From NCBI GenBank assembly GCA_002011125.2, contig MTMF02000009.1, forward strand, positions 1,640,989 through 1,704,988: a stretch of DNA of 64,000 bases, given 5' to 3'. This document shows, in pieces, positions 2,740 to 55,076 of this stretch. The stretch is from Candidatus Hydrothermarchaeum profundi (lineage in GTDB: Archaea; Hydrothermarchaeota; Hydrothermarchaeia; Hydrothermarchaeales; Hydrothermarchaeaceae). The notes below the pieces were generated by a model, which was not told the origin of the DNA, searched no databases, and saw nothing but the letters and a program-made list of their open reading frames with translations. Position numbers and translations under genes: made by a program. Each line of letters opens with the position of its first letter. Positions within the stretch are counted from its first letter, which is position 1.

Positions 2740-3177
2740 TTACACCGTTTCATTTAGCTGAAGTTCATACTTAGAAGGACACTTAACAAGTATCTGTTCT
2801 GCCTTAAATTGGTTTGGTGACACAAGTGAACCTATAACCACAACATCTATTTCTGACTCGCTTCCTAGATCCTTACCTACCGGGAAATTACTAGGTAATA
2901 CGCCTTCATAGGTCACCTGTATTTGTGAAACGTCATCAGTTAATACAAAAGTCAATGTGTTTGGAACCCAGCGTACGGTTTCTTCTACCACCCGCCCTTC
3001 TAACTGTATCTGCCTATTCAGGAACTTATCTGGACTTGATACTACTTCGCTTACCGACTTATAGGGATTAACAAACCCAGATAAAGCACTGAAGCCTATC
3101 GCGACAAAAAGGATGATAATGAGTGCTCCAAAACCGACCTTTAATTTTTTGGCTGTTTTTTTATCCACCAACATCAC
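2740..3177 (-). CDS. ccmE: Heme chaperone CcmE, CxxxY (System I*) type
   Basis: N-terminal TM, OB-fold-like body, C-terminal KCPSKY; likely start is ATG at 3174. Confidence 0.93.
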   Translation of the reverse strand: MMLVDKKTAKKLKVGFGALIIILFVAIGFSALSGFVNPYKSVSEVVSSPDKFLNRQIQLEGRVVEETVRWVPNTLTFVLTDDVSQIQVTYEGVLPSNFPVGKDLGSESEIDVVVIGSLVSPNQFKAEQILVKCPSKYELQLNETV

Positions 3178-3284
3178 CTACTTTTAATCTTCCTAATCCT
3201 CCCATCTATATACACCATGTATAATATCAGTACCGTCCACAAGATGGTTGCAACAATAAATATGCTGGTGTAATTTTCCATCAT
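3174..3284 (-). CDS. ccmD: CcmD-like small membrane protein (36 aa; not in ORF track)
   Basis: MMENYTSIFIVATILWTVLILYMVYIDGRIRKIKSR*; AGGAGG RBS; one TM plus basic tail; lies between ccmC and ccmE; stop overlaps the ccmE ATG (TGATG). Confidence 0.8.
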   Translation of the reverse strand: MMENYTSIFIVATILWTVLILYMVYIDGRIRKIKSR

Positions 3285-3294
3285 ATTCCTCCTA

Positions 3295-3963
3295 TCAAAT
3301 TGCCTTTGTTGTTGTATCCTCTAACTCCTGAAGTTTTACTTCAAGCCAAAGGAGATATCCGTATAGTAAAAGGACACCGACAATCATAATAATTAAAACA
3401 GGCCTCATTTGGGGTGAGAGGCTAAACTCCTTCAATCTTGGATGAAGAGAAAACCACATCGTAGTGGATATATATGTTAGAGGGATGCCTGCATACCCAA
3501 ACACCCCTAAGATAGCTGAGAGTCTTGCCTTAGATTCTTTATTTACGATAGATGATCTTAAAGCAAAATAGGAAGCAAATATGAACCATAAAATAAGTGT
3601 AGTTGTTTCCCTTGGATCCCAATTCCAATAACTTCCCCAAGCAGGTTTTGCCCAGACCATTCCGGTAAATAAAGTTAATGAACAAAAAATTATCCCCAAC
3701 TTTGCAGAACTCGACGCGACTCTATCCCATTTAAGGTCTCTCGTCTTGAGATACATTAAGCTAAAGACTAATGTCACAGTAAATGCGGTATACGTAGTAG
3801 CATTTATGGGTATATGGAAGAACACATTCCTATAAAGTTCTTCCATGGGTTTTGTTCTAGACTCTATGGGTCCAAAAACCACTAATGCATTATACATGCC
3901 AAAAAGAACCATTATATATACTGTGCCAAGAAGCGCTAGTGCATAGCCTCTTTTAAATTCCAT
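3295..3963 (-). CDS. ccmC: Heme exporter CcmC
   Basis: FFHIP, WAKPAWGSYWNWDPRET WWD motif, SLHP. Confidence 0.95.
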   Translation of the reverse strand: MEFKRGYALALLGTVYIMVLFGMYNALVVFGPIESRTKPMEELYRNVFFHIPINATTYTAFTVTLVFSLMYLKTRDLKWDRVASSSAKLGIIFCSLTLFTGMVWAKPAWGSYWNWDPRETTTLILWFIFASYFALRSSIVNKESKARLSAILGVFGYAGIPLTYISTTMWFSLHPRLKEFSLSPQMRPVLIIMIVGVLLLYGYLLWLEVKLQELEDTTTKAI

Positions 3964-3969
3964 TTAAAG

Positions 3970-4638
3970 TCACTCCTCAAGGGCATAGTCAAAAGTCAAA
4001 AGAGATATAACGGCCATGATAACAGTATACGCTATTATTATTTTAAACTCGCCCATCGTATTTAAAAACGTTTCTCCTTCTACTAAAACTTTCTTTAAAG
4101 CTGATATGGAGGATATTATAATAGGGAACAACACTGGAAAAAGGATAACAGGTAACAGCAGTTCTCTAGCTCGAGCATTAAGTATTAATACTGACATAGC
4201 AGAGCCTACAACTGCAAAACCGAGGTTTCCCAAGGTGAGGTAAAAAAAAGATAAGGCTATACTTCCCGCTACAGGGAAATTAAAGAAGAGTAGGAATATT
4301 GGAAACGATATAACCTCAATTAATACAAGCAAAGAAAAATTGTAAGCGACTTTACCCAGCAAGATGTCTGTTCCACTAACCGGAGAGAGTTTTAACCCCT
4401 CGAGAGTTCCTAGATCTTTTTCTCTAGTAAAGGCCCTTGACAGGCCCAGCATGCCTGAAAAAATTAAAATAAGCCATAAAAGACCTGGCCCGATGTCTGG
4501 GACAGCTGCGATAAAAGCGCCTACAATATAGCTAAACATTAAAATTGAAAGAAGAGCAAAAAGAAGCATGAAATTTATAGTATGCTTTGTTCTAAACTCT
4601 ATTAAGAGGTCCTTCTTAGCTATTTTTAGCGCCTTCAT
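3970..4638 (-). CDS. ccmB: Heme exporter permease CcmB
   Basis: KKDLLIEFR, F.REKDLGTLEGL and LLPVILFP motifs; about 6 TM. Confidence 0.93.
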   Translation of the reverse strand: MKALKIAKKDLLIEFRTKHTINFMLLFALLSILMFSYIVGAFIAAVPDIGPGLLWLILIFSGMLGLSRAFTREKDLGTLEGLKLSPVSGTDILLGKVAYNFSLLVLIEVISFPIFLLFFNFPVAGSIALSFFYLTLGNLGFAVVGSAMSVLILNARARELLLPVILFPVLFPIIISSISALKKVLVEGETFLNTMGEFKIIIAYTVIMAVISLLTFDYALEE

Positions 4639-5348
4639 TACTCTACTCCCTTCTCGGTAAGTCTTATGAAAGTCTCTTCCAAAGTCTCAACTCCTTTAAT
4701 TTCTTCGAGTGTGCCACATGCTTTGACCTCCCCTCCGTCAAGGATGCAAGCTTTATCACAAAGTTTTTCAGCTTCATCGAGATAATGAGTCGTAAGCAGG
4801 ATCGTAGTATCCTGTAGGCTAAGCTCTTTTATCCACTTGTAGAAAATGTGCTTACCTTGAATATCCAATCCAGCGGTTGGTTCATCTAACAATAGTATTT
4901 TCGGGGCGTGTATTAAGGCCCTAGCAATAGCCAACCTTTGTTTCATTCCTCTCGAGAAGGTGCCGACAAGTTCGTTTCCTCTATCCTCTAAATTTACCAT
5001 TTTTAGTAATGCTTCCGCATTGTTCCTATTAACTTCAAAAAGATCAGCATAGAAGTGAAGATTTTCCCTAGCTGTAAGCTCATCATATAAAAAGGGATTA
5101 TGCGAGACTACCCCGATAAGTTTCTTTACTTCCTCCGGTTCTTCCTGTAAATCTAGGCCGCTTATTATTATTTCTCCGGATGTGGGTTTAAGTAAGGTAC
5201 TTAATATCTTTATCAAAGTAGTTTTTCCAGCACCATTTGGCCCAAGAAGAGCAAAAGATTCTCCTTCAGCCACAGAAAAACTTACCCGATTAATGGCTAA
5301 GTGGCCACCGAACTCTTTGCACACCTCTTTTAGCTCTATAATAGCCAA
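4638..5348 (-). CDS. ccmA: ABC ATPase CcmA
   Basis: GPNGAGKTT, FSRGMKQR, LLLDEP; TTG start at 5348 has a GGTGA RBS (track extends ORF to 5381). Confidence 0.9.
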   Translation of the reverse strand: MAIIELKEVCKEFGGHLAINRVSFSVAEGESFALLGPNGAGKTTLIKILSTLLKPTSGEIIISGLDLQEEPEEVKKLIGVVSHNPFLYDELTARENLHFYADLFEVNRNNAEALLKMVNLEDRGNELVGTFSRGMKQRLAIARALIHAPKILLLDEPTAGLDIQGKHIFYKWIKELSLQDTTILLTTHYLDEAEKLCDKACILDGGEVKACGTLEEIKGVETLEETFIRLTEKGVE

Positions 5349-43702: not shown

Positions 43703-43859
43703 ATAATCACCTTTTGATTATAATTGAACTCCTCATTATAAAGGTTTTGTTATTAAAGCGATATTTTGATTGGGAGTACAGAAACAACTTTAAATATATT
43801 TCTCACCATTTCAAAAGACTACAGGAAATTTTAAAGTATTAATTAACAAATTTTAGAAT

Positions 43860-44525
43860 ATGACCACAAAAAAAGAAATAAGCCATATTAAAAACATTTC
43901 ACCCAGATTAAACGATAGGAAGGCTATCACGCTAATTAGCCTTATGAAAAATGGGAGAATTTCGGACACGGAACTAATGGTGCACCTCGGATTAAAAAGT
44001 GCAAATTCGGCTTCGTACTATAGGAAAGATTTAGAAAAACAGGGAATAATTGAGGGATATACTACCTCAGTAAATTGGACAAAGATAGGATACCCTACGG
44101 ACTTTGTTATTTTAATAGAAGGGGGAAGTATGGAAGCGAATTTCAATATAGAGAAGGAGATAATAACATCTCTAGAAGATTACGCCAAGAAAAAAGGAGA
44201 TATTCTTATCTTGCCGAGCGGCAATGGTAGAGTCCTGATCAAAAATATAACTACCTGTTTCGGAGAAAGACCCATGACAATAATTCAGGGCCATGCCTCA
44301 TCAGAGCACGATGCCCTAATATACTTCAGATATTATGTTGCGGAGAAATTCCAAAATGCAAAAACAACTTTCTTGCTGGTGAAGGGTAAAAGTATAGATA
44401 ACCATTTTATCAAAAAGGATTACATAAATTTCATGAAAGGCTCCTTTACTGAAGAGGATACCCTAGAATTGCCCGAGGAGTTCAAAAAACATTTTCCATC
44501 ATTAGCAGCAAAACCAAAGAAATAG
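43860..44525 (+). CDS. Lrp/AsnC-like transcriptional regulator with extended C-terminus
   Basis: L..NGRISDTEL...LG, LEKQGIIEGYT..VNW.KIG. Confidence 0.8.
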   Translation: MTTKKEISHIKNISPRLNDRKAITLISLMKNGRISDTELMVHLGLKSANSASYYRKDLEKQGIIEGYTTSVNWTKIGYPTDFVILIEGGSMEANFNIEKEIITSLEDYAKKKGDILILPSGNGRVLIKNITTCFGERPMTIIQGHASSEHDALIYFRYYVAEKFQNAKTTFLLVKGKSIDNHFIKKDYINFMKGSFTEEDTLELPEEFKKHFPSLAAKPKK

Positions 44526-45242
44526 TTACTCCAACTCTAATTCTTCTCTTCCAAAAACCCTAAATCTTCCATTTGAATACAAAATAGGGAAATATTGCGT
44601 ATCATGATTTGTGCTCCTCATTTTCACTATACCGATATATCTTTCAAGAGCACTAAGCACATCCCCTCTCTTTTGGAAATCTAAATGTATTATTCCATCA
44701 GCTAGGAAATCCTCCACTCCATACTGGCTATATACCGGTCTCTCTGGAGACATTTCAGATATCAAAAAACAGGTTATCCCTGTGGTTTTCAAATCCTTAA
44801 AAAGGTAGTAGAGTTCCCTTCTTGGATCTCTAATAGTTGTTAAAGAGTAAAGAGCGTTAAGGGAATCTATAACCAATAAGTCATATTCCTGTCCTTTTTT
44901 AGCTTCCTCAATATATCCCCTAATCAACCGTATCCAATTGTCCCCGTATTTCTTTTCCATAGCTGCTTGAACCTTCCTAAAATCTACTAGCAGGATATTT
45001 CTGTGATCAGACATTCCGAGTCTCCTCATCTGTTGCATAAGACTCTCTATCTCCTGTTCTAGGGTTATATAGACGGACTTTAGATCTTCATTAACTGCAT
45101 TATTGTAAAGGATACTATATGCAAGAGAAGATTTCATAGTGCCTGCAGTGCCGCAGATTAACGTAATACTCCCCTTTGGAATTCCTCCTTCGATATGTCT
45201 GTCTAAACCTTCAACATAAGTTCTTATTCTAGGCACATCCAT
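44526..45242 (-). CDS. KaiC/RAD55-like ATPase (single domain)
   Basis: GLD..I.GGIP.GS, Walker A GTAGTMKS, YITLE, Walker B LVIDS, FLADGII, KMR; likely ATG 45242. Confidence 0.92.
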   Translation of the reverse strand: MDVPRIRTYVEGLDRHIEGGIPKGSITLICGTAGTMKSSLAYSILYNNAVNEDLKSVYITLEQEIESLMQQMRRLGMSDHRNILLVDFRKVQAAMEKKYGDNWIRLIRGYIEEAKKGQEYDLLVIDSLNALYSLTTIRDPRRELYYLFKDLKTTGITCFLISEMSPERPVYSQYGVEDFLADGIIHLDFQKRGDVLSALERYIGIVKMRSTNHDTQYFPILYSNGRFRVFGREELELE

Positions 45243-45409
45243 ATTATCACGTAAGATTTTTTTTACTTGAAGAATTAAATAGTTTTCCACAAGTAAAAAC
45301 GGTTTGGCACCGATGTTAATATCAAACAGCTACCAAAAGACTACTTCCGTATACCTAATACAACAAGAAATGACTCAAGAAATAATTAAATATTCAATAG
45401 GTTTAGTGA

Positions 45410-46867
45410 ATGGAAAGGATTAGTAAATATCGTAGAGGTAAAAGTTTGACTAATATTCAAAAGGAATTAATAAAAATTGTAGGACCAAAAAATGTCTTTT
45501 CTGAAAAAATTCAGAGATTTTGCTATCGTTTCGGGAATGTGATTGAGTATCGGTTTGATACTCCCTCCTTTTTACCAGATTTTGTGGTAAGACCTGTTTC
45601 AACACAGCAAGTAGCATCTATCCTGAAACTTGCAAACAAGCATCAAATCCCTGTCGTAGTATGGGGAGGTGGTACCGATTTTAGCGGAGCCAATAGTCCG
45701 ATTAAAAACGGGATTGTAATAGATATGAAAGAGTTTAATGAAATACAAGTTGATGTGAAGAGACGGTGTGTTACAGCCGGAAGCGGAGCTATTTTGAAGA
45801 AGATAGGGGAGGAGTGTGAAAATAAAGGATTTTTATTCGAGCATGAACTAACAAGCCAGCCAGGAGCAACTCTAGGAGGTGCGATTGCCACAAACTCATT
45901 TGGCTATAGGTCCGGAAAATATGGGTCCATTAGGAACCTTATACTAGGGATTGAAGTCGTCTTGCCTACAGGGGAGATAATAAAAACTAAGCCCTTGTTC
46001 AAAACATCCATGGGGTATGACCTCGTATCGCTCTTAGTTGGCAGTGAAGGAACATTAGGAGTGATAACTCAGGCTACATTGAAGCTTAGTCCTTTGCCAG
46101 AAAAAAGGGAACTCTATACCTTTGTATTCAGCAGGATAAATCATGCAATAGAAGCTGCTGAAAAAGTATACAACACTATCCCCCCAGATTTATTTGAAAT
46201 TTTTGAAATGAGTTTTTTGGGATATGTAGAGAATACTCAAGAATTTATAGAAGAGCATATTGGTATTCCAAAAAACCTGCTGGACTTAAGTGATGGATTC
46301 CCGGCTATCTTGACTGTAGGATATGAAGGTAAAAAAGAAGTAGTAAATAGTAAGATAAATATTTTGAAAGACTTAATAACCGATGGATTAAGTATTCAAA
46401 ACGAAGGTTACTATGAGAACAGGTTTATTAGGTATCATAAAGAGTTCAGAAAAATCCTCAATCTTCTGCCAAACATTTCATTAAAAGATTACAGCTATGC
46501 TACCTTTGACTTCAGCATCCCTGAAACAAAGTTATTGGAATTTAATGATACTCTTCACGCAATATCTAAAGAATATTCAAATACATATCTATTGGATGTA
46601 AACCTCTATTCAGCGCTTTCTGTCGTGGGTATAGATTTCTTTGTGCCAAATAATAAAGAAGTTTACAAGAATTTGGCTGAGGAAATATTTAGAGTAGTAT
46701 TAGAGCTAGGCGGATCTTTATCTTCTGTCCATGGAATAGGAACTCGGTTAATACCTCACCTTAGAAAAGATTTAGGTGATCCATACGTAGACTTAATGAA
46801 TAGAATAAAGAAAGCCTTTGATCCTTTGAATATCTTAAACCCTGGTAAGCTGGGTAACGTGATGTAA
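45410..46867 (+). CDS. FAD-binding oxidoreductase (GlcD/alkyl-DHAP synthase superfamily)
   Basis: P..VVRP, GGGT, ATLGG, KYG, GYDL..L.VGSEGTLGVIT, HGIG, DP.NILNPGK. Confidence 0.9.
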   Translation: MERISKYRRGKSLTNIQKELIKIVGPKNVFSEKIQRFCYRFGNVIEYRFDTPSFLPDFVVRPVSTQQVASILKLANKHQIPVVVWGGGTDFSGANSPIKNGIVIDMKEFNEIQVDVKRRCVTAGSGAILKKIGEECENKGFLFEHELTSQPGATLGGAIATNSFGYRSGKYGSIRNLILGIEVVLPTGEIIKTKPLFKTSMGYDLVSLLVGSEGTLGVITQATLKLSPLPEKRELYTFVFSRINHAIEAAEKVYNTIPPDLFEIFEMSFLGYVENTQEFIEEHIGIPKNLLDLSDGFPAILTVGYEGKKEVVNSKINILKDLITDGLSIQNEGYYENRFIRYHKEFRKILNLLPNISLKDYSYATFDFSIPETKLLEFNDTLHAISKEYSNTYLLDVNLYSALSVVGIDFFVPNNKEVYKNLAEEIFRVVLELGGSLSSVHGIGTRLIPHLRKDLGDPYVDLMNRIKKAFDPLNILNPGKLGNVM

Positions 46868-48409: not shown

Positions 48410-51388
48410 ATGAAACTCGAAAACTTCCTTATAACTCCTTTAACAATTCTTTTTTTAATTCATAGTGTAACTGCCTACTCATCTTATTATTCAGACATAC
48501 CTTTTTTTATAAAGTTCTATGTGTTAGTTTTGGGTTTGCACCATGCCTCAATGATAGCTTTCCTGTGGGAAATAAAAGGAGTTTCTAAATCGAAAGTGTG
48601 GGATAATATATTCAACGCAAATATATGCGGCATTTTTATTACATTCTCTTTAGCTTTGCTTTTGTATAACCTTTACTTAAATTCTATAAACTGGCGGCAT
48701 CTATTAGTCATCTGTGCGGGATTAGATATAGTAGCTCACATTTTTGCCGATATTACTCTATATTATCTTGTAAAGCCTATTATTAAGGAGAAGCTTAATT
48801 TATTTAAATACAGGTATTTAGCCCTTTACGCAGGAATCACAGGGTCTTTATTCTTCTTGATCATATATAATTTAAAAATAAAATTTCCTACCGTCTCTAC
48901 TGATCTACCTTTTAGCATTCTAGGTTTACTTTTTGCTTTTACAGTTTTTTACTTTGTATATTCCCCTATTATAATTTCTGAGGCATATAGAGAAATAGGT
49001 TTTGTTAGGAAACCATTCTCCCTTGCTGGAATAGGAGCTTTAACATTTGTTATCTCTTCTATATTAGTTTTATATGTGACCTTCTACCATATTGAAACTA
49101 CTATTAGACATCAGCTTTTCTACAATATAGCGATTTATGTTCTGGCATCAATTTTCTCATTGATATTCTATACTAAGTTTATAGTAGAGTATCCATCACT
49201 TCTAGAGAGAAAATGGAAAGCATTAATGCCTTTTGATTTTATTAAAATCGCTACAACTTTAGCTCTATTTTTCTTGGCTGTGTCTCTTTATTTTTCAGCT
49301 GAAAAATATTTGGAATTGCCCTTTAGGCTAGAAATATTATTGCCGGTTCTTTTAGGTTTACTAGCGATTTTTATAACCGTAATTTATATTCTTTCATACA
49401 CAAATAGCATTTATAATAAAAGCAAGCTTGTTTATTGGATATATCTAAAAGCTGGTTTATTTATTCATGTAGCATCTACTCTATATGTGCTAGCACTAAT
49501 TATTCTTTTATGGAAGACCCTGAACAATATAGGTAAATACCTATCATCCTTCTTTATTGTTCTTGTATTTTCATTTTACATTTCTTATGCAATGGATCTG
49601 CGCACAATTTTGAAAAATCTGGGGATAAGAACTCGTCTTACTAAAGCTGAAATCACAGGTAATGCTGTGTTGCTCTATGCTATATTTTTAATAATTTTCT
49701 TCTTTATCCTTTTAACCTATGGGAAAACTTCACTAATTTTATATGATATCCAGATAGAATCCTACCCCTTTCTATTATTTTCAATAGCCGTTTTCTTGGT
49801 TGCATATATAAGTTACCTAAGCGTCACGCACAAGGGATTTGAAGAAATGATGAAAAAAAACATTTGGAGCGAACTAACCTATATATCCGGATTTTTAACT
49901 TTTATTACAGTCTATTTATTATATACCTCAGAAAAAAATGTCCAACTTTTCCTATTTCACGATTTCTTTTTTATAAGCTATTTCGTGATGCTTTTAATCG
50001 AAATTGCGTCAATAAGAACGTTAGGATATCATCCGATACATAAAAAAGGTGAAAAAAGCCTGATGTATCTTTTCTACCATCATACGAGCGCATATTTCAG
50101 GGTAGATTACCTTGAGAAAAAATGGAAAAAAATTGTAGACACATACAAGCATCTAGACAGTAAACTATCTACGATCAAGTACAATCCTGCCAAGAGGTCT
50201 TTTGACCTATCAGAACTAAATGAAAAAGCTAGGACTGTTGTTGCCGTTGCAATGTTGCTTGAAATGTACCAGGATAGGAAGGATTTAGGTAAAGTTACAC
50301 CCCTCGGAGAACGCGATATAAAGAGAGAAATAAAAGAAACCTTGAAAGAAAAGGTACTACTCCTCCCCGCAGATTTAAGATCTAAATTTGATGAAGACGA
50401 ATACTATCCTCTTCTCTATGAGTATGCGATTAATACTATAATCGAAAAAATCAAGCCATTTGTCCCTGTTGAAGAACATCAAGAAATTTTTAACAAACTA
50501 AAAAGGGTAGATGATTTCTTCGAATCATTAGAACTCCGGGATTCCAAAATCAATTTTAAGACTGAAAAAAGAATTTCCAGAAGAAACTTTATAAGATATT
50601 TAAAAATGTATTTGCGTTCCATAGAGGAGAGGTTCCCTTTTGAAGATAAGTTACTGTATGAATCTGTAAAAGAGTTAGTGAATAGAGACCTCTCTAATTA
50701 CGGTTTTTCTGTAGTAGATTTGTTAGACATAGTGCCTTCAGGTATCAATCCTGTAGACCGGATTAGTGGCGGACTAAAAAAAGGTACTATGACCCTTCTA
50801 ATATCTGAAGAAAATAAGTATAAGAACGAATTTCTAGAATCCTTCATACGTCAAGGATTAAAAGACGGTGATTGTAATATTTATGCAACATCAAAACTAC
50901 CCTCACAAGAGATATATAATAATCTTTTAATGGATTTTGAAATTAAAAAAACCACTCTAATAGACCTCTATCAGTCGATATATACAACATCACCAGTATC
51001 TAGCATCAGAGAGGAACCTCATAAAATAATTATACCCCCCACAATCATCTCATGGAAAATTAGCTTAACAAAAGCGGTTAAAAAATATTCAAAAGAAGAA
51101 CATAAAAGAATAGTCATAGACGTATTTAATGATCTCCTGAGGTACTATAACCAAGATGAGATAACCAAAGTTTTATATCGACAGCTTGAGGGACTTCGAA
51201 AGTGGAATTGTACTGTAATAATAGTTCTTTATCCTAAAACATTTCAAGAAAATAAATATGAAGAAATTAAAAAATGGTTTGATAACGTTCTCATTTTAGT
51301 AGGGCGAGAAAAAACTTACTTAAATTTTGATAAACTTCATGGAGGATTGCCAAAAAAGAGGTCAATACCTCTTGAGGAACAGTGGTGA
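48410..51388 (+). CDS. Polytopic membrane protein fused to a degenerate KaiC/RAD55-like domain
   Basis: About 540 aa of successive TM segments; helical linker; C-terminal VPSGI..VD..SGGL..GT with decayed Walker A (ISEENKYK), RIVID and FDNVL. Confidence 0.8.
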   Translation: MKLENFLITPLTILFLIHSVTAYSSYYSDIPFFIKFYVLVLGLHHASMIAFLWEIKGVSKSKVWDNIFNANICGIFITFSLALLLYNLYLNSINWRHLLVICAGLDIVAHIFADITLYYLVKPIIKEKLNLFKYRYLALYAGITGSLFFLIIYNLKIKFPTVSTDLPFSILGLLFAFTVFYFVYSPIIISEAYREIGFVRKPFSLAGIGALTFVISSILVLYVTFYHIETTIRHQLFYNIAIYVLASIFSLIFYTKFIVEYPSLLERKWKALMPFDFIKIATTLALFFLAVSLYFSAEKYLELPFRLEILLPVLLGLLAIFITVIYILSYTNSIYNKSKLVYWIYLKAGLFIHVASTLYVLALIILLWKTLNNIGKYLSSFFIVLVFSFYISYAMDLRTILKNLGIRTRLTKAEITGNAVLLYAIFLIIFFFILLTYGKTSLILYDIQIESYPFLLFSIAVFLVAYISYLSVTHKGFEEMMKKNIWSELTYISGFLTFITVYLLYTSEKNVQLFLFHDFFFISYFVMLLIEIASIRTLGYHPIHKKGEKSLMYLFYHHTSAYFRVDYLEKKWKKIVDTYKHLDSKLSTIKYNPAKRSFDLSELNEKARTVVAVAMLLEMYQDRKDLGKVTPLGERDIKREIKETLKEKVLLLPADLRSKFDEDEYYPLLYEYAINTIIEKIKPFVPVEEHQEIFNKLKRVDDFFESLELRDSKINFKTEKRISRRNFIRYLKMYLRSIEERFPFEDKLLYESVKELVNRDLSNYGFSVVDLLDIVPSGINPVDRISGGLKKGTMTLLISEENKYKNEFLESFIRQGLKDGDCNIYATSKLPSQEIYNNLLMDFEIKKTTLIDLYQSIYTTSPVSSIREEPHKIIIPPTIISWKISLTKAVKKYSKEEHKRIVIDVFNDLLRYYNQDEITKVLYRQLEGLRKWNCTVIIVLYPKTFQENKYEEIKKWFDNVLILVGREKTYLNFDKLHGGLPKKRSIPLEEQW

Positions 51389-51454
51389 CCACAAAAAATA
51401 TTTATTTTAGAAAATAAAGTTAGATAAGTCCCTAGGTTAGATGGAAGTATATCT

Positions 51455-52120
51455 ATGAACCATTTCATTTCAATAGCGAGTACTATTCTAGCTTTTGGAA
51501 TAATAGGTGGTGGTCTAAAGTTTATTGACGATGCCTTCGATGAAGGAATATTTAATAAAAAGCTAGCTAGTATTACTGCAGTAATACTAGTAATATTGTG
51601 GATTTTTTTATCTCTGAAAGATCCTTACTCCGGGACAATATTATTTTCAATTTTAGCAGGGGTTCTTTTCTCTGGAAAAATAGATAATACAGTATTTATT
51701 GCAAGTACTCTTGCACTCGCTTTGACTACGCTGATTATGGGAGCTACGATATTTTGGATACCGCTGATTATTTTAACTATCTTCGGAGTTATTGATGAAC
51801 TAGGCAATGACTATACGGACATCCACAAAACTCGGCGGCTGATAAAATTTTTTTTTGAACACAGATGCACACTAAAACTGGGTATTCTTGCGATTTGTTT
51901 AACTACATTTTTTCCTATAGAATATTTTCTAATTTTCTTAGCTTTTGATATCTCATATGACTTTGTAGGAATGTATAGTAAAAGAATTAGCAATATAGCA
52001 GAGCCTAAAGTTACAATATTCCTGTGTAATGAACTTCCTTTCCAAATACCTGTAGAACGTGTATGTTTTATGAAATCTGGATTACGCCTTGAGGATAAAA
52101 GCATAAGAATTATTGTATAA
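51455..52120 (+). CDS. Hypothetical membrane protein with Asp-rich loops
   Basis: About 6 TM; KFIDDAFDE, GKIDN, DELGND, EHR, FD..YD. Confidence 0.7.
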   Translation: MNHFISIASTILAFGIIGGGLKFIDDAFDEGIFNKKLASITAVILVILWIFLSLKDPYSGTILFSILAGVLFSGKIDNTVFIASTLALALTTLIMGATIFWIPLIILTIFGVIDELGNDYTDIHKTRRLIKFFFEHRCTLKLGILAICLTTFFPIEYFLIFLAFDISYDFVGMYSKRISNIAEPKVTIFLCNELPFQIPVERVCFMKSGLRLEDKSIRIIV

Positions 52121-52626
52121 ATAATATACTTCATTAGGGAAAAAATTTTTTAATAAAAAAAAGAATTTTAAACCATAATAGATAAATTTTTTAGAATTTT
52201 TATTTGTTAATTAAATTAAAAATTTACTTTATTATAAATTTATAATATTATTAAAAAATTTTATTTCTTTAATTATTTTATTAATAATTTAATGATAAAA
52301 TAAAAAATTAAATTTATTTCTATGTTTTATAAATCCTATATCCTAAAAGTGAGAAACAGTTCACATTAAAGAGGTTTATATCCCGAGCTAAATTACTCTT
52401 TAGTCCTTCAAAGATCGTAACTTTGAAAAGATAGTTAATAGCAGAATAGATTGGCCATATATTAAAAAAAATATTATTATTTTATTTTTTAAGGTTAATA
52501 TAAGTCTATTTTTGTTTTGATTTTTTATAGAATATTTATCTATTTTTTTCAAAAAATATTATAGAAATAGTATAGTAAATATTATTTTCTATAAATTTTC
52601 TTTTTTAATTTAACAATATTTCATTA
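52121..52626. other. Long, extremely AT-rich intergenic region
   Basis: About 500 bp of poly-A/T tracts; central perfect inverted repeat TTCAAAG-N7-CTTTGAA at 52407-52427. Confidence 0.8.
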
Positions 52627-52639
52627 GGAGGTGAAGTAA

Positions 52640-52765
52640 ATGGAGCAAGTATCCCCTCTACAAAGCGATGTTAAACGCCTTTACGAACTATTAGGGGTGG
52701 GGAAAAGAGGGGAAATAAAACACGCAAAGTCCGGTGGGGGAAGAGATGAAAAAAAGTATTTCTAA
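52640..52765 (+). CDS. Microprotein 1 (41 aa; not in ORF track)
   Basis: MEQVSPLQSDVKRLYELLGVGKRGEIKHAKSGGGRDEKKYF*; ideal RBS GGAGGTGA 5 nt upstream. Confidence 0.65.
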   Translation: MEQVSPLQSDVKRLYELLGVGKRGEIKHAKSGGGRDEKKYF

Positions 52766-52892
52766 AAAAAGCTCAAGTCATATTATCCTCTGCCCAGATG
52801 AAACAAAAAAGAGAGTAAATAACTACGTCATCGTAGAAATAGAGGGAACCGGTTTTGTAGTAATAAAACAAAAAATAGACGCGGAGCTATGA
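52746..52892 (+). CDS. Microprotein 2 (48 aa; not in ORF track)
   Basis: MKKSISKKSSSHIILCPDETKKRVNNYVIVEIEGTGFVVIKQKIDAEL*; G-rich RBS; overlaps microprotein 1. Confidence 0.55.
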   Translation: MKKSISKKSSSHIILCPDETKKRVNNYVIVEIEGTGFVVIKQKIDAEL

Positions 52893-52893
52893 T

Positions 52894-53070
52894 ATGGAGG
52901 AGATTATTGAAAGAAAAAAACTTCTAGAGAAATATAGGATAAAAGAACCTGACGAAACACAGATATACTTAATACTCAGAGACTTTGTTTCAGACCCTCT
53001 TCTAGACACCGAATTCAAGAGAAAATTTCCCTCATTAACATCTATCCTGAAGCAGAGAAATAAAGGATAA
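52894..53070 (+). CDS. Microprotein 3 (58 aa; not in ORF track)
   Basis: MEEIIERKKLLEKYRIKEPDETQIYLILRDFVSDPLLDTEFKRKFPSLTSILKQRNKG*; GGAG RBS; starts 1 nt after the previous stop. Confidence 0.7.
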   Translation: MEEIIERKKLLEKYRIKEPDETQIYLILRDFVSDPLLDTEFKRKFPSLTSILKQRNKG

Positions 53071-53084
53071 AATCTATAAAATTC

Positions 53085-55076
53085 TCATTTTTCTATAGGT
53101 ATTCTGCCATCAATTAGCGATTTTATTATCGTAGGATCAGCGAGGGTAGACGTATCGCCTAGATTTTCGTAATCACCTTCTGCTATCTTTTTGAGTATTC
53201 TTCGCATAATCTTACCGCTTCTAGTTTTAGGAAGCCCATTTGCAAATTGTATGTAGTGAGGGGTTGCAATAGGGCTTATCTCTTTTCTTACATGTTGAAT
53301 TAGCTCTTTTTTTAGTTCGTCCCTCTTTTCTACATCTTTTTTCAAAACTACAAAACAATATATCGCCTGACCTTTTATAGGGTGAGGCACACCTACCACG
53401 CCCGCTTCAACTACAGCATCATGAGAAACTAGTGCATTTTCTATCTCAGCAGTTCCTAAACGGTGCCCAGATACATTTATAACGTCGTCAATACGGCCCA
53501 TAATCCAAAAATATCCATCCTCATCAACCTTAGCGGCATCCCCCGTCATATATTTCCCCTTGAACTTGCTAAAGTAAATCTCTTTAAATCTCCTATTACC
53601 TTTATCACCAAATATCCCTCTCAGCATACCAGGCCATGGTTTTTTAATAACTAGGTACCCGCCTTCATTTGCTTCCGCAGGAGTACCATCTTCTTTTAAA
53701 ACTTCAGGAAATATTCCAGGAAAAGGTAATGTAGCCGAGCCGGGTTTGAGAGGGGTTGCCCCGGGTAAAGGGGTAATTAATATGCCGCCAGATTCGGTTT
53801 GCCACCAAGTATCCACTATAGGACATCGCTCTTTTCCTATTACCTTATAAAACCAAAGCCATGCCTCCGGATTAATGGGCTCTCCTACTGTCCCCAAAAG
53901 CCGTAGGCTTGATAAGTCATGCTTATTAGGCCATTCCTCACCAAACTTCATAAGGGTTCTAATCGCAGTAGGAGCAGTATAAAATATAGAAACTTTGTGT
54001 CTCTCTATTATACTCCAATATCTATCCGGATTAGGATAAGTTGGAGTACCCTCAAACATTAGCACAGTCGCTCCAGCAGATAATGGACCATAGACCATAT
54101 ATGTATGGCCTGTTATCCACCCGACATCAGCCGTACACCAGAAGATATCAGTATCCTTTATATCAAAAATATACCTAAAAGTCATATTGGCATAGACCAT
54201 ATACCCTCCAGTAGTATGTATTATTCCTTTAGGTTTCCCTGTAGAACCACTTGTATATAATATAAATAAGGGGTCTTCTGCATCCATAGGTTCCGGGGGA
54301 CATTCATCTTTGATATCGCTTGAGTGTGTTTCTTCTTCCCACCAGTAGTCGCGACCCTCCTCCATATTTACCTCGGCATTTCCTATATTTCTAACAATAA
54401 CTGACTGAATAGAATCACAGTCAGGGAGGATCTCATCAGCCTTTTCCTTTAGATGTATAACTTTTCCCGCATGATAAGCTATATCTGTAGTTATCAACAT
54501 CTTAGATTGAGCGTCTTGTATTCGGTTTTTAAGGGCTTCCGGAGAAAATGCACTAAATACAACACTATGTACCGCGCCAATTCTCGCACAAGCCAGCATT
54601 GCAATAGTCAATCTAGGTACCATTGGCATGAATATTGTAACCCGGTCCCCTTTTTTTACTCCATGTTTTTTGAGTACGTTTGCAAATCTACAAACTTCTC
54701 TATGCAACTGTAGATATGTGAACACTTTACGTTGAAGATGGCTTTCTCCCTGCCATATGAGTGCTGCCTTATTTCTCCGGTGCCCACTTAAGTGTCTATC
54801 AATACAATTATAAGACGCATTCAGCTTTCCCCCTTCATAGAACCTCACGTATGGAACAGTAAAATCATAACTTACAACTCTATCCCATTTTTTAAACCAG
54901 TCAATACATTCTGCCTGTGCAGCCCAGAAGCCTTCAAAATCTTCTTCCGCTTCTCTTTGAAGAGCACGGTATTCTTCAAGGCTTTTTATAATGGCGGTTT
55001 CCCTAAATTCTTTTGAAGGATAAAAAACTCTTTCTTCTTTTGATAAGCTCATTATGGTTTCTGGGTCTTCTTTCAT
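53085..55076 (-). CDS. acs: Acetyl-CoA synthetase (AMP-forming)
   Basis: YTSGSTGKPKG, VGEPINPEAW, DTWWQTE, LPKTRSGKIMRR, LGDTSTL. Confidence 0.96.
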   Translation of the reverse strand: MKEDPETIMSLSKEERVFYPSKEFRETAIIKSLEEYRALQREAEEDFEGFWAAQAECIDWFKKWDRVVSYDFTVPYVRFYEGGKLNASYNCIDRHLSGHRRNKAALIWQGESHLQRKVFTYLQLHREVCRFANVLKKHGVKKGDRVTIFMPMVPRLTIAMLACARIGAVHSVVFSAFSPEALKNRIQDAQSKMLITTDIAYHAGKVIHLKEKADEILPDCDSIQSVIVRNIGNAEVNMEEGRDYWWEEETHSSDIKDECPPEPMDAEDPLFILYTSGSTGKPKGIIHTTGGYMVYANMTFRYIFDIKDTDIFWCTADVGWITGHTYMVYGPLSAGATVLMFEGTPTYPNPDRYWSIIERHKVSIFYTAPTAIRTLMKFGEEWPNKHDLSSLRLLGTVGEPINPEAWLWFYKVIGKERCPIVDTWWQTESGGILITPLPGATPLKPGSATLPFPGIFPEVLKEDGTPAEANEGGYLVIKKPWPGMLRGIFGDKGNRRFKEIYFSKFKGKYMTGDAAKVDEDGYFWIMGRIDDVINVSGHRLGTAEIENALVSHDAVVEAGVVGVPHPIKGQAIYCFVVLKKDVEKRDELKKELIQHVRKEISPIATPHYIQFANGLPKTRSGKIMRRILKKIAEGDYENLGDTSTLADPTIIKSLIDGRIPIEK

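Follow-up and report, generated by a model that had tools for sequence, protein, structure and literature searches.

A stand-alone microprotein and the tail of an Lrp-like regulator probably carry pieces of one portable helical module in Candidatus Hydrothermarchaeum profundi

MicroProteins (miPs) are small proteins with a single domain and are related in sequence to part of larger multi-domain proteins, and the known examples covered in the excerpts of the two accounts drawn on here come from plants and animals (PMC7584889, PMC4807768). In the archaeon Haloferax volcanii, a KaiC-like protein has been proposed to tune a regulator of the Lrp/AsnC class in the CsmR-CirA axis, where the mechanism put forward is post-translational modification and involves neither a microprotein nor a tail that docks (PMC13286277). 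A more general role for KaiC-family ATPases, as signalling hubs of archaea, has also been proposed (Makarova et al. 2017, in the lines that cite it in PMC5847659). Here, we analyzed a stretch of 64,000 nucleotides (nt) from the genome of Candidatus Hydrothermarchaeum profundi (contig MTMF02000009.1, positions 1,640,989 to 1,704,988), which we call the window and in whose numbering coordinates are given unless a contig is named. It holds a small open reading frame (ORF), sORF3 (52894..53070, + strand), of 58 amino acids (aa) that consists of a helical module only, and an atypical Lrp/AsnC-like regulator of 221 aa (43860..44525, +) that combines a winged helix-turn-helix (wHTH) with a domain that is RAM-like by predicted fold and runs on for about 45 further aa at its C terminus. 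We find that sORF3 and the tail of the regulator very probably share a homologous module, and we lean slightly towards a reading in which sORF3 is a genuine 58-residue protein made of this portable module only, a homologous piece of which sits on the Lrp-like regulator, perhaps for docking.

The original prediction was that the microprotein copies a short motif at the C terminus of the regulator. sORF3 (full sequence MEEIIERKKLLEKYRIKEPDETQIYLILRDFVSDPLLDTEFKRKFPSLTSILKQRNKG; reading ...SDPLLDTEFKRKFPSLTSILKQRNKG) carries LDTEFKRKFPSL at residues L37-L48 (53002..53037, +), and the regulator, which ends in ...LELPEEFKKHFPSLAAKPKK, carries LPEEFKKHFPSL at 44469-44504. This part of the prediction was exact in its coordinates, in the identity of 8 of the 12 residues, and in the four differing codons (ttg/cta, gag/gaa, aaa/aag, cca/ccc). 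Since codons differ at four of the eight identical residues and DNA identity is 23/36, neither stretch is a recent DNA copy of the other, and the claim of conservation at the protein level stands. The motif is also rare: in six frames of the 19 contigs (2.19 Mb), EF[KR]..FPSL and L..EFK..FPSL each occur twice, in these two ORFs only, and among 11,799 open frames of at least 50 aa, sORF3 is the sole other window with at least 8/12 identity to the 12-mer of the regulator. When 200 shuffled 12-mers were used as queries, they gave a mean of 0.09 matches at or above 8/12. Since 8.5% of the shuffles had at least one such match, raw identity alone is merely suggestive.

Homologues of sORF3 extend the similarity beyond the motif. 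A phmmer search of 1.84 billion cluster representatives returned four proteins at E<=0.001, the query included. Two of them, P0002 (50 aa, 53% identity, MDRKRLLEKYRIREPEKELIDRIVGNFFSNRGLHEEFKRRFPSLAKRVRS) and P0004 (56 aa, 48% identity), are stand-alone proteins whose start and stop positions are those of sORF3. The third, P0003 (191 aa), has a Roadblock/LC7 (Robl_LC7) domain followed by the module (...REELLKRYKIREPDEDLINSIVDDFLSHSNKLPEEFKKRFPSLAAV...), and its C-terminal end, KLPEEFKKRFPSLAA, agrees with the consensus of the regulator tails, ELPEEFKKRFPSL. Alignment of the four sequences gave 16 invariant columns and a helical module of roughly 50 aa with the consensus LLEKYxIKEP...I..IV..F...EFKRKFPSL. 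On these alignments, sORF3 is a member of a rare but real microprotein family.

Profile comparisons were made with hidden Markov models (HMMs) built without the sequences of this genome, which avoids circularity. With the HMM of nine regulator-orthologue tails from other genomes, sORF3 took second place in a set of 30,391 frames (E 0.0079, against 0.3 for the following hit), and with the HMM built on the module sequences of the three foreign proteins, the regulator took second place among genome-wide frames (E 1e-5, against 0.45). Direct alignment of both families with hhalign gave a probability of 93.2% and E 3e-7 over 36 columns, with module columns 21-56 matched to regulator residues 186-221 (44415..44522, +), the stretch that holds LPEEFKKHFPSL and the basic end. 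In addition, tblastn with sORF3 matched the tails of regulator orthologues in two relatives (G023 and G025). As far as sequence comparison can tell, these non-circular tests settle the matter against chance, and the shared module can be put down neither to chance nor to recent copying.

To place the module, we compared it with Pfam, where sORF3 matches PF09987 (DUF2226, an uncharacterised family that is conserved among archaea) at 23.0 bits (cut-off 22; E 6.5e-5) over residues 6-44 and profile positions 150-185; in a six-frame search of the genome, its score was 22.5 bits, a small margin over the cut-off. P0002, P0004, and the tail of P0003 match profile positions 150-191, above the 22-bit cut-off. 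Since sORF3 matches 36 of the 252 positions of the full-length DUF2226 architecture, and its upstream frame contains seven stops, it is a fragment-sized, stand-alone form of DUF2226. An intact DUF2226 gene of 240 aa, with the element REEILRKYRLKEPTEE, lies elsewhere in the genome.

The module divides into two halves. The first half, in sORF3 KKLLEKYRIKEPDE (residues 8-21; 52915..52956, +), is widespread in the order as (R)EELLKKYxIKEPxEEEI, with 16 distinct frames that include DUF2226-type proteins, proteins of 627-639 aa, and one tandem pair, and several carry it at their extreme C terminus. The second half, EFK+KFPSL with a basic end, is limited to three settings, namely the stand-alone proteins, P0003, and the tails of the regulators, and the regulator carries the second half only, as its last ~36 residues. 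Since both proteins carry pieces of one portable module, the microprotein is no copy of the regulator, and the predicted copying of an Lrp motif was too narrow a description of what is a stand-alone form of a larger module (DUF2226 positions 150-185). Two short forms hold the first half only: a 39-aa ORF outside the window (MVSNKISFQKYRKKLLEKYHIREPTELEVEQFLTRLWAQ; C9:1082680-1082742, - strand) and P0005, a stand-alone protein of 37 aa from a public collection that was the sole addition from word-indexed protein searches.

DUF2226 is a catalogued but unstudied family: sequence searches of the PDB with the module, a DUF2226 member, and DUF2095 gave nothing significant, with no solved DUF2226 structure found, and a literature search found no paper mentioning DUF2226. 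The separable central module of DUF2226, its stand-alone microprotein form, and its place as the tail of an Lrp-like protein are new. Pattern scans for further module loci gave 159 matches with one confirmed in genome contigs, 195 with none in viral contigs, and 302 with two in metagenomes. The three confirmed loci (L043, L080, and L081) match alike, with 43% identity over query residues 9-47. At L043, a transketolase-like protein of 630 aa (3029-4921) holds LTEFKRKFPSKYIECGISEQ (TEFKRKFPS), and we rejected this locus as a chance occurrence of the core motif in an unrelated protein; L080 and L081 were taken for chance matches of the same type by their match statistics alone. DUF2095 was likewise considered as a relative of the module and rejected, as the leave-out HMMs gave it non-significant E-values of 5.7 and 1.9. 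DUF2095 proteins at three loci of one genus (L073-L075, genus g18) start with MIEYNEEFK(R/K)(K/R)(Y/F)PNLA(K/R)EIEE (EEFKKRFPNLAKE), and the copy in this genome (C9:906911-907198, L079) has a motif-like start, DFKKMFPHLAKEL / ...SDFKKMFPHLAKEL. Neither MCR alpha nor Robl_LC7 was found in this genome.

The 221-aa protein that bears the second half is an Lrp-like regulator with an extra, non-canonical tail. It has the AsnC-type N-terminal wHTH, although HTH_24 scored 20.1 bits, under the cut-off of 21.9, and NCBIfam Lrp models match it in part (E 2e-6). The profile of its family finds LrpA (1i1g) in the PDB with E 1.5e-9 over residues 16-104, among 21 chains at E<=0.01; Pfam PF01037 (AsnC_trans_reg) gave no sequence match in the regulator. 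Its AlphaFold2 (AF2) model has a predicted local distance difference test score (pLDDT) of 77 and consists of the wHTH and then a beta-alpha-beta-beta-alpha-beta domain. Foldseek listed 36 matches to this model with E below 0.001, all of them Lrp/AsnC chains of 140-158 residues aligned over 163-181 columns, and in structural rows from the Atlas, residues 13-191 align to PF01037-bearing clusters, with alignments ending at 180-191. Residues ~185-221 thus lie outside every structural alignment, and the protein exceeds the compact 140-170 aa of Lrp/AsnC members. Solved chains have 140-171 aa, which bears out the statement that canonical Lrp/AsnC proteins have no such tail.

The tail has been kept among orthologues of the regulator, which supports the original prediction. 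Nine close orthologues were found in 40 relatives (62-70% identity), and all nine retain LP[EA]EF[KR]K[HR]FPSL and an end rich in K/R. In four paralogues (30-39% identity), the tail has diverged to F-R..F. Tail residues 181-220 have a pLDDT of 53-64 in the AF2 model, and low confidence outside the Lrp fold is what one would expect of a segment that becomes ordered on binding a partner. Separately, an 11-mer, CAAAAGACTAC, lies 48 nt 5' of the regulator ATG (43812-43822, +) and again between the KaiC-like gene described below and the gene at 45410-46867 (45334-45344, +). It has six copies in the genome and, within one mismatch, occurs in none of the nine regulator-orthologue loci; it is a possible operator and serves as a lead only.

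Several features indicate that sORF3 is, with good probability, a real translated gene, a judgement that comes from the DNA and its homologues. The ATG is preceded by GGAG at 7 nt and by the stop of sORF2 at 1 nt. In its own frame, sORF3 has a codon score of 0.206 per codon, compared to 0.22 +/- 0.07 for 58-codon chunks of genes and -0.92 off-frame. A contig of 458 nt from another study's run (the X3 contig; 97% identical, depth 3.1, spanning 52590-53047) has two changes in sORF3, both synonymous and neither inside the motif. The AF2 model of sORF3 (mean pLDDT 77) has predicted helices at residues 2-13, 21-32, 35-44, and 46-56, and the motif runs across helix 3 and the proline-initiated helix 4. 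A search of the ESM Atlas with sORF3 returned no usable match, and an Rfam search of 51000-54000 found nothing close to any gathering score.

We therefore favor, by a small measure, the reading of sORF3 as a genuine, portable docking piece, and its mechanism may be sketched as follows. The module is laid out as a helix, a KYxIKEP turn, and a second helix, and then an amphipathic helix, EFK+KFPSL, with a basic end. The same module lies at the center of DUF2226 proteins and at the C terminus of the Roadblock/LC7 protein, and its last ~36 residues make up the regulator tail. A hydrophobic docking face, with charged residues around it, would be formed by L (position i), F (i+4), F (i+8), and L (i+11), and by means of this face the tail would hold the regulator to a partner. 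Being a docking piece that lacks an effector domain, the free microprotein would bind at that site as well and tune the interaction, either by competing or by bridging. Since the predicted helix has one hydrophobic face, the tail lies outside the Lrp fold at low confidence, and the sequence is invariant across unrelated contexts, a docking helix fits better than a mere linker. That the module serves as a protein-protein docking piece is an even call.

Several observations weigh against this reading. As noted, 8.5% of shuffled queries reach the raw identity of 8/12, and the HMM of the regulator tails aligns only 14 residues of sORF3. Very large libraries yielded just three foreign homologues, and neither tblastn against the 40 relatives nor a profile search of 38 genomes of the phylum found an orthologue of sORF3. 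The X3 contig has a depth of just 3.1 and two changes in sORF3 in all. The model of sORF3 was built from four sequences and has a predicted template modelling score (pTM) of 0.45, and Foldseek gave it no match at E<=0.001 and hence no structural neighbor.

The alternative that survives best comes from the original prediction, which had also named oligomerisation as a possible role, and gives the helix a specific partner, a KaiC-family ATPase, with the regulator docking on the neighboring KaiC-like protein, sORF3 on a pseudo-KaiC membrane protein, and sORF3 acting as a competing decoy. The KaiC-like gene (44526..45242, -) encodes a single-domain ATPase with a KaiC/RecA-like domain (PF06745, 145.1 bits against a cut-off of 26.6, E 2.7e-42) and a Walker-type GTxGxMKSS that is invariant in all eight aligned sequences. 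It is convergent with the regulator gene, the stop codons abutting, and is the convergent neighbor in seven of the nine regulator-orthologue loci. A KaiC orthologue is kept in all nine regulator-bearing relatives. However, it is present in 20 of the 40 relatives overall, including 11 that have no regulator orthologue, and in two relatives (G009 and G017) the regulator gene and the KaiC gene do not share a contig. Convergent genes are also not co-transcribed, and 8.5 kb separate sORF3 from the KaiC-like gene. As for charge, the KaiC-like protein of the window and four of the seven orthologues printed (L024-L032) end in ...REELELE, with REDLELE, REDLLLE, and REELVLE in the other three, and the motif-bearing tails are all K/R-rich at the end; the acidic KaiC end and the basic tail end are a possible electrostatic complement as read from the residues. 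An axis of the same two protein classes has been proposed in Haloferax volcanii, within the part of the report cited (PMC13286277).

For the pseudo-KaiC side of this proposal, the neighborhood of sORF3 is informative. Upstream lies a cluster (48410..52120, +) of two membrane proteins, one of 992 aa (48410-51388) and one of 221 aa (51455-52120). The former has many predicted membrane helices and a divergent KaiC domain at its C terminus (PF06745, E 2.9e-9, residues 775-968), and in 8 of 24 relatives' loci examined, a match to it adjoins the gene for the 221-aa membrane protein. Between the stop of the latter gene and GGAGGTGA just upstream of sORF1 (52627-52634) is a spacer of 477 nt with 7-25% GC (region 52126-52628), flanked on both sides by a direct repeat of 13 nt (ATACTTCATTAGG / ATATTTCATTAGG). 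The spacer resembles an insertion with target-site duplication and may have entered what was one operon; with it removed, sORF1 would start ~27 nt past the upstream gene. sORF1-3 lie downstream of the divergent-KaiC cluster, and in one relative (G006) the order is divergent-KaiC protein, membrane protein, and homologue of sORF2. On the other hand, sORF3 itself is linked to a pseudo-KaiC cluster in this genome only, and the domain fused to the module in P0003 is Roadblock and not KaiC. Weighing both sides, we regard docking on KaiC with sORF3 as a decoy as unlikely, and a KaiC-family protein as the partner of the module, whatever the role of sORF3, as similarly doubtful. Less likely again is the fullest version, an archaeal counterpart of the microProteins in which the EFKxxFPSL helix would dock on a KaiC-family hub, the regulator would be tethered by its tail, and sORF3 would compete. 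If this were true, KaiC-based signalling would be wired to transcription by peptide competition, and Roadblock/LC7 and DUF2226 proteins, through their copies of the module, would be additional clients of the KaiC hub.

A somewhat weaker contender than docking on KaiC treats the EFKKRFPSL helix and its basic end as an amphipathic helix that binds membranes or nucleic acids, in the manner of MinD-type membrane-targeting tails, and that would determine where in the cell the regulator, the Roadblock protein, and the microprotein reside. The residues L, F, F, and L share one helical face and are flanked by K/R, all the tails end K/R-rich, and sORF3 adjoins the genes for two membrane proteins. However, membrane-targeting helices usually conserve amphipathicity and not exact sequence, and the invariance of E, F, K, F, P, S, and L across unrelated protein contexts fits this poorly. 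A proline lies within the motif, and the first half (KYxIKEP) is conserved but has no amphipathic character. We consider this account improbable.

A further alternative is that sORF3 has no function and is left over from the decay of a longer DUF2226-type gene, or that one gene was broken into sORF1-3. These three small ORFs lie in three frames within 430 nt, the match of sORF3 to the 252-position profile is confined to the middle of that profile, and sORF3 was not found in the relatives searched. sORF1 (41 aa; 52640..52765, +) would suit such decay, as its three changed codons in the X3 contig are all non-synonymous. Its codon score is 0.116, there was one weak match (E 0.07) among the 40 relatives, and its coding status is uncertain. 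sORF2 (48 aa; 52746..52892, +; alternative GTG start at 52734; ...HIILCPDETKKRVNNYVIVEIEGTGFVVIKQKIDAEL) speaks against a broken gene, being an independent conserved family with homologues in 22 of the 40 relatives, as frames of 52-89 aa. It has a codon score of 0.231, and its changes in the X3 contig are six synonymous and one conservative. For sORF3 itself, codon usage, the GGAG, and synonymous-only changes fit a live gene, the upstream frame has its seven stops, and the genome retains an intact 240-aa DUF2226 gene. Since P0002 and P0004 share the boundaries of sORF3 at 53% and 48% identity, and coding signatures are present, a decayed fragment is unlikely, and we rank it a little below the amphipathic helix. 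The weakest explanation, a chance match of a short peptide between the two ORFs, can draw on the 8.5% of shuffled 12-mers that match at 8/12 or better somewhere in the genome and on the chance appearance of TEFKRKFPS in transketolase-like proteins of unrelated organisms, but is dismissed as highly improbable given the hhalign result (E 3e-7 over 36 columns), the reciprocal leave-out HMMs, the bridging sequence P0003, and the tblastn matches to tails in two relatives.

sORF2 has further associations of its own. Pfam offered no family for it (Fibrinogen_C at E 0.098 only), nor did NCBIfam or PADLOC. In the loci of five relatives (L083-L087), homologues lie directly after ftsZ in four (L084-L087) and after a membrane-protein gene in one; after the ftsZ-linked copies come a protein of 131-160 aa, in three of the four loci, and a small wHTH-like protein (76-86 aa), in all four. 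Four relatives (G006, G010, G014, and G023) have a copy after the orthologue of the membrane protein at 51455-52120, and a second copy in this genome lies near C9:1480246-1480356. We rejected a type II toxin-antitoxin pair of sORF2 and sORF3: neither has recognizable toxin or antitoxin domains, sORF3 has only DUF2226 and no NCBIfam or PADLOC family, and the sORF2 homologues at these five loci follow ftsZ or the membrane-protein gene and no toxin gene.

Returning to sORF3 as a portable docking piece, the reading that we favor, a transcription factor and a Roadblock/LC7 protein both bear one short conserved helix that also exists as a free microprotein, and DUF2226 gains a defined, separable sub-module. 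Little work has explored either archaeal regulators with non-canonical tails or the small proteins of archaea, and this pairing is concrete and testable. If a common partner exists, a portable docking piece and its stand-alone competitor would wire signalling to transcription in archaea; if there is none, the locus would still be a clean case of module shuffling that yields a real microprotein family.

Among known systems, DUF2226 (PF09987) is like sORF3 in that sORF3, P0002, P0004, and the tail of P0003 match its positions ~150-191 and in that this genome has a 240-aa member with REEILRKYRLKEPTEE. sORF3 differs in consisting of the central 36-42 of 252 positions, without both flanking domains, and in ending with EFKRKFPSL and a basic tail, which are absent in the full-length members examined. 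The regulator resembles the Lrp/AsnC (feast/famine) proteins in its wHTH and, in the fold of its model, in a RAM-like beta-alpha-beta-beta-alpha-beta domain, and differs in its longer effector domain and conserved extension of ~45 aa, which solved members of 140-171 aa lack. Compared to the CsmR-CirA axis, as far as its report is drawn on here, the regulator and KaiC-like protein of the window are alike by protein class, and the host is a different, uncultured lineage. Finally, sORF3 is like the eukaryotic miPs, within the excerpts cited above, in being a 58-aa single module that is related to part of larger proteins, namely the regulator tail, the C terminus of P0003, and the center of DUF2226; the likeness is one of sequence, and the related piece is a C-terminal tail and not, as in those miPs, a dimerization domain.

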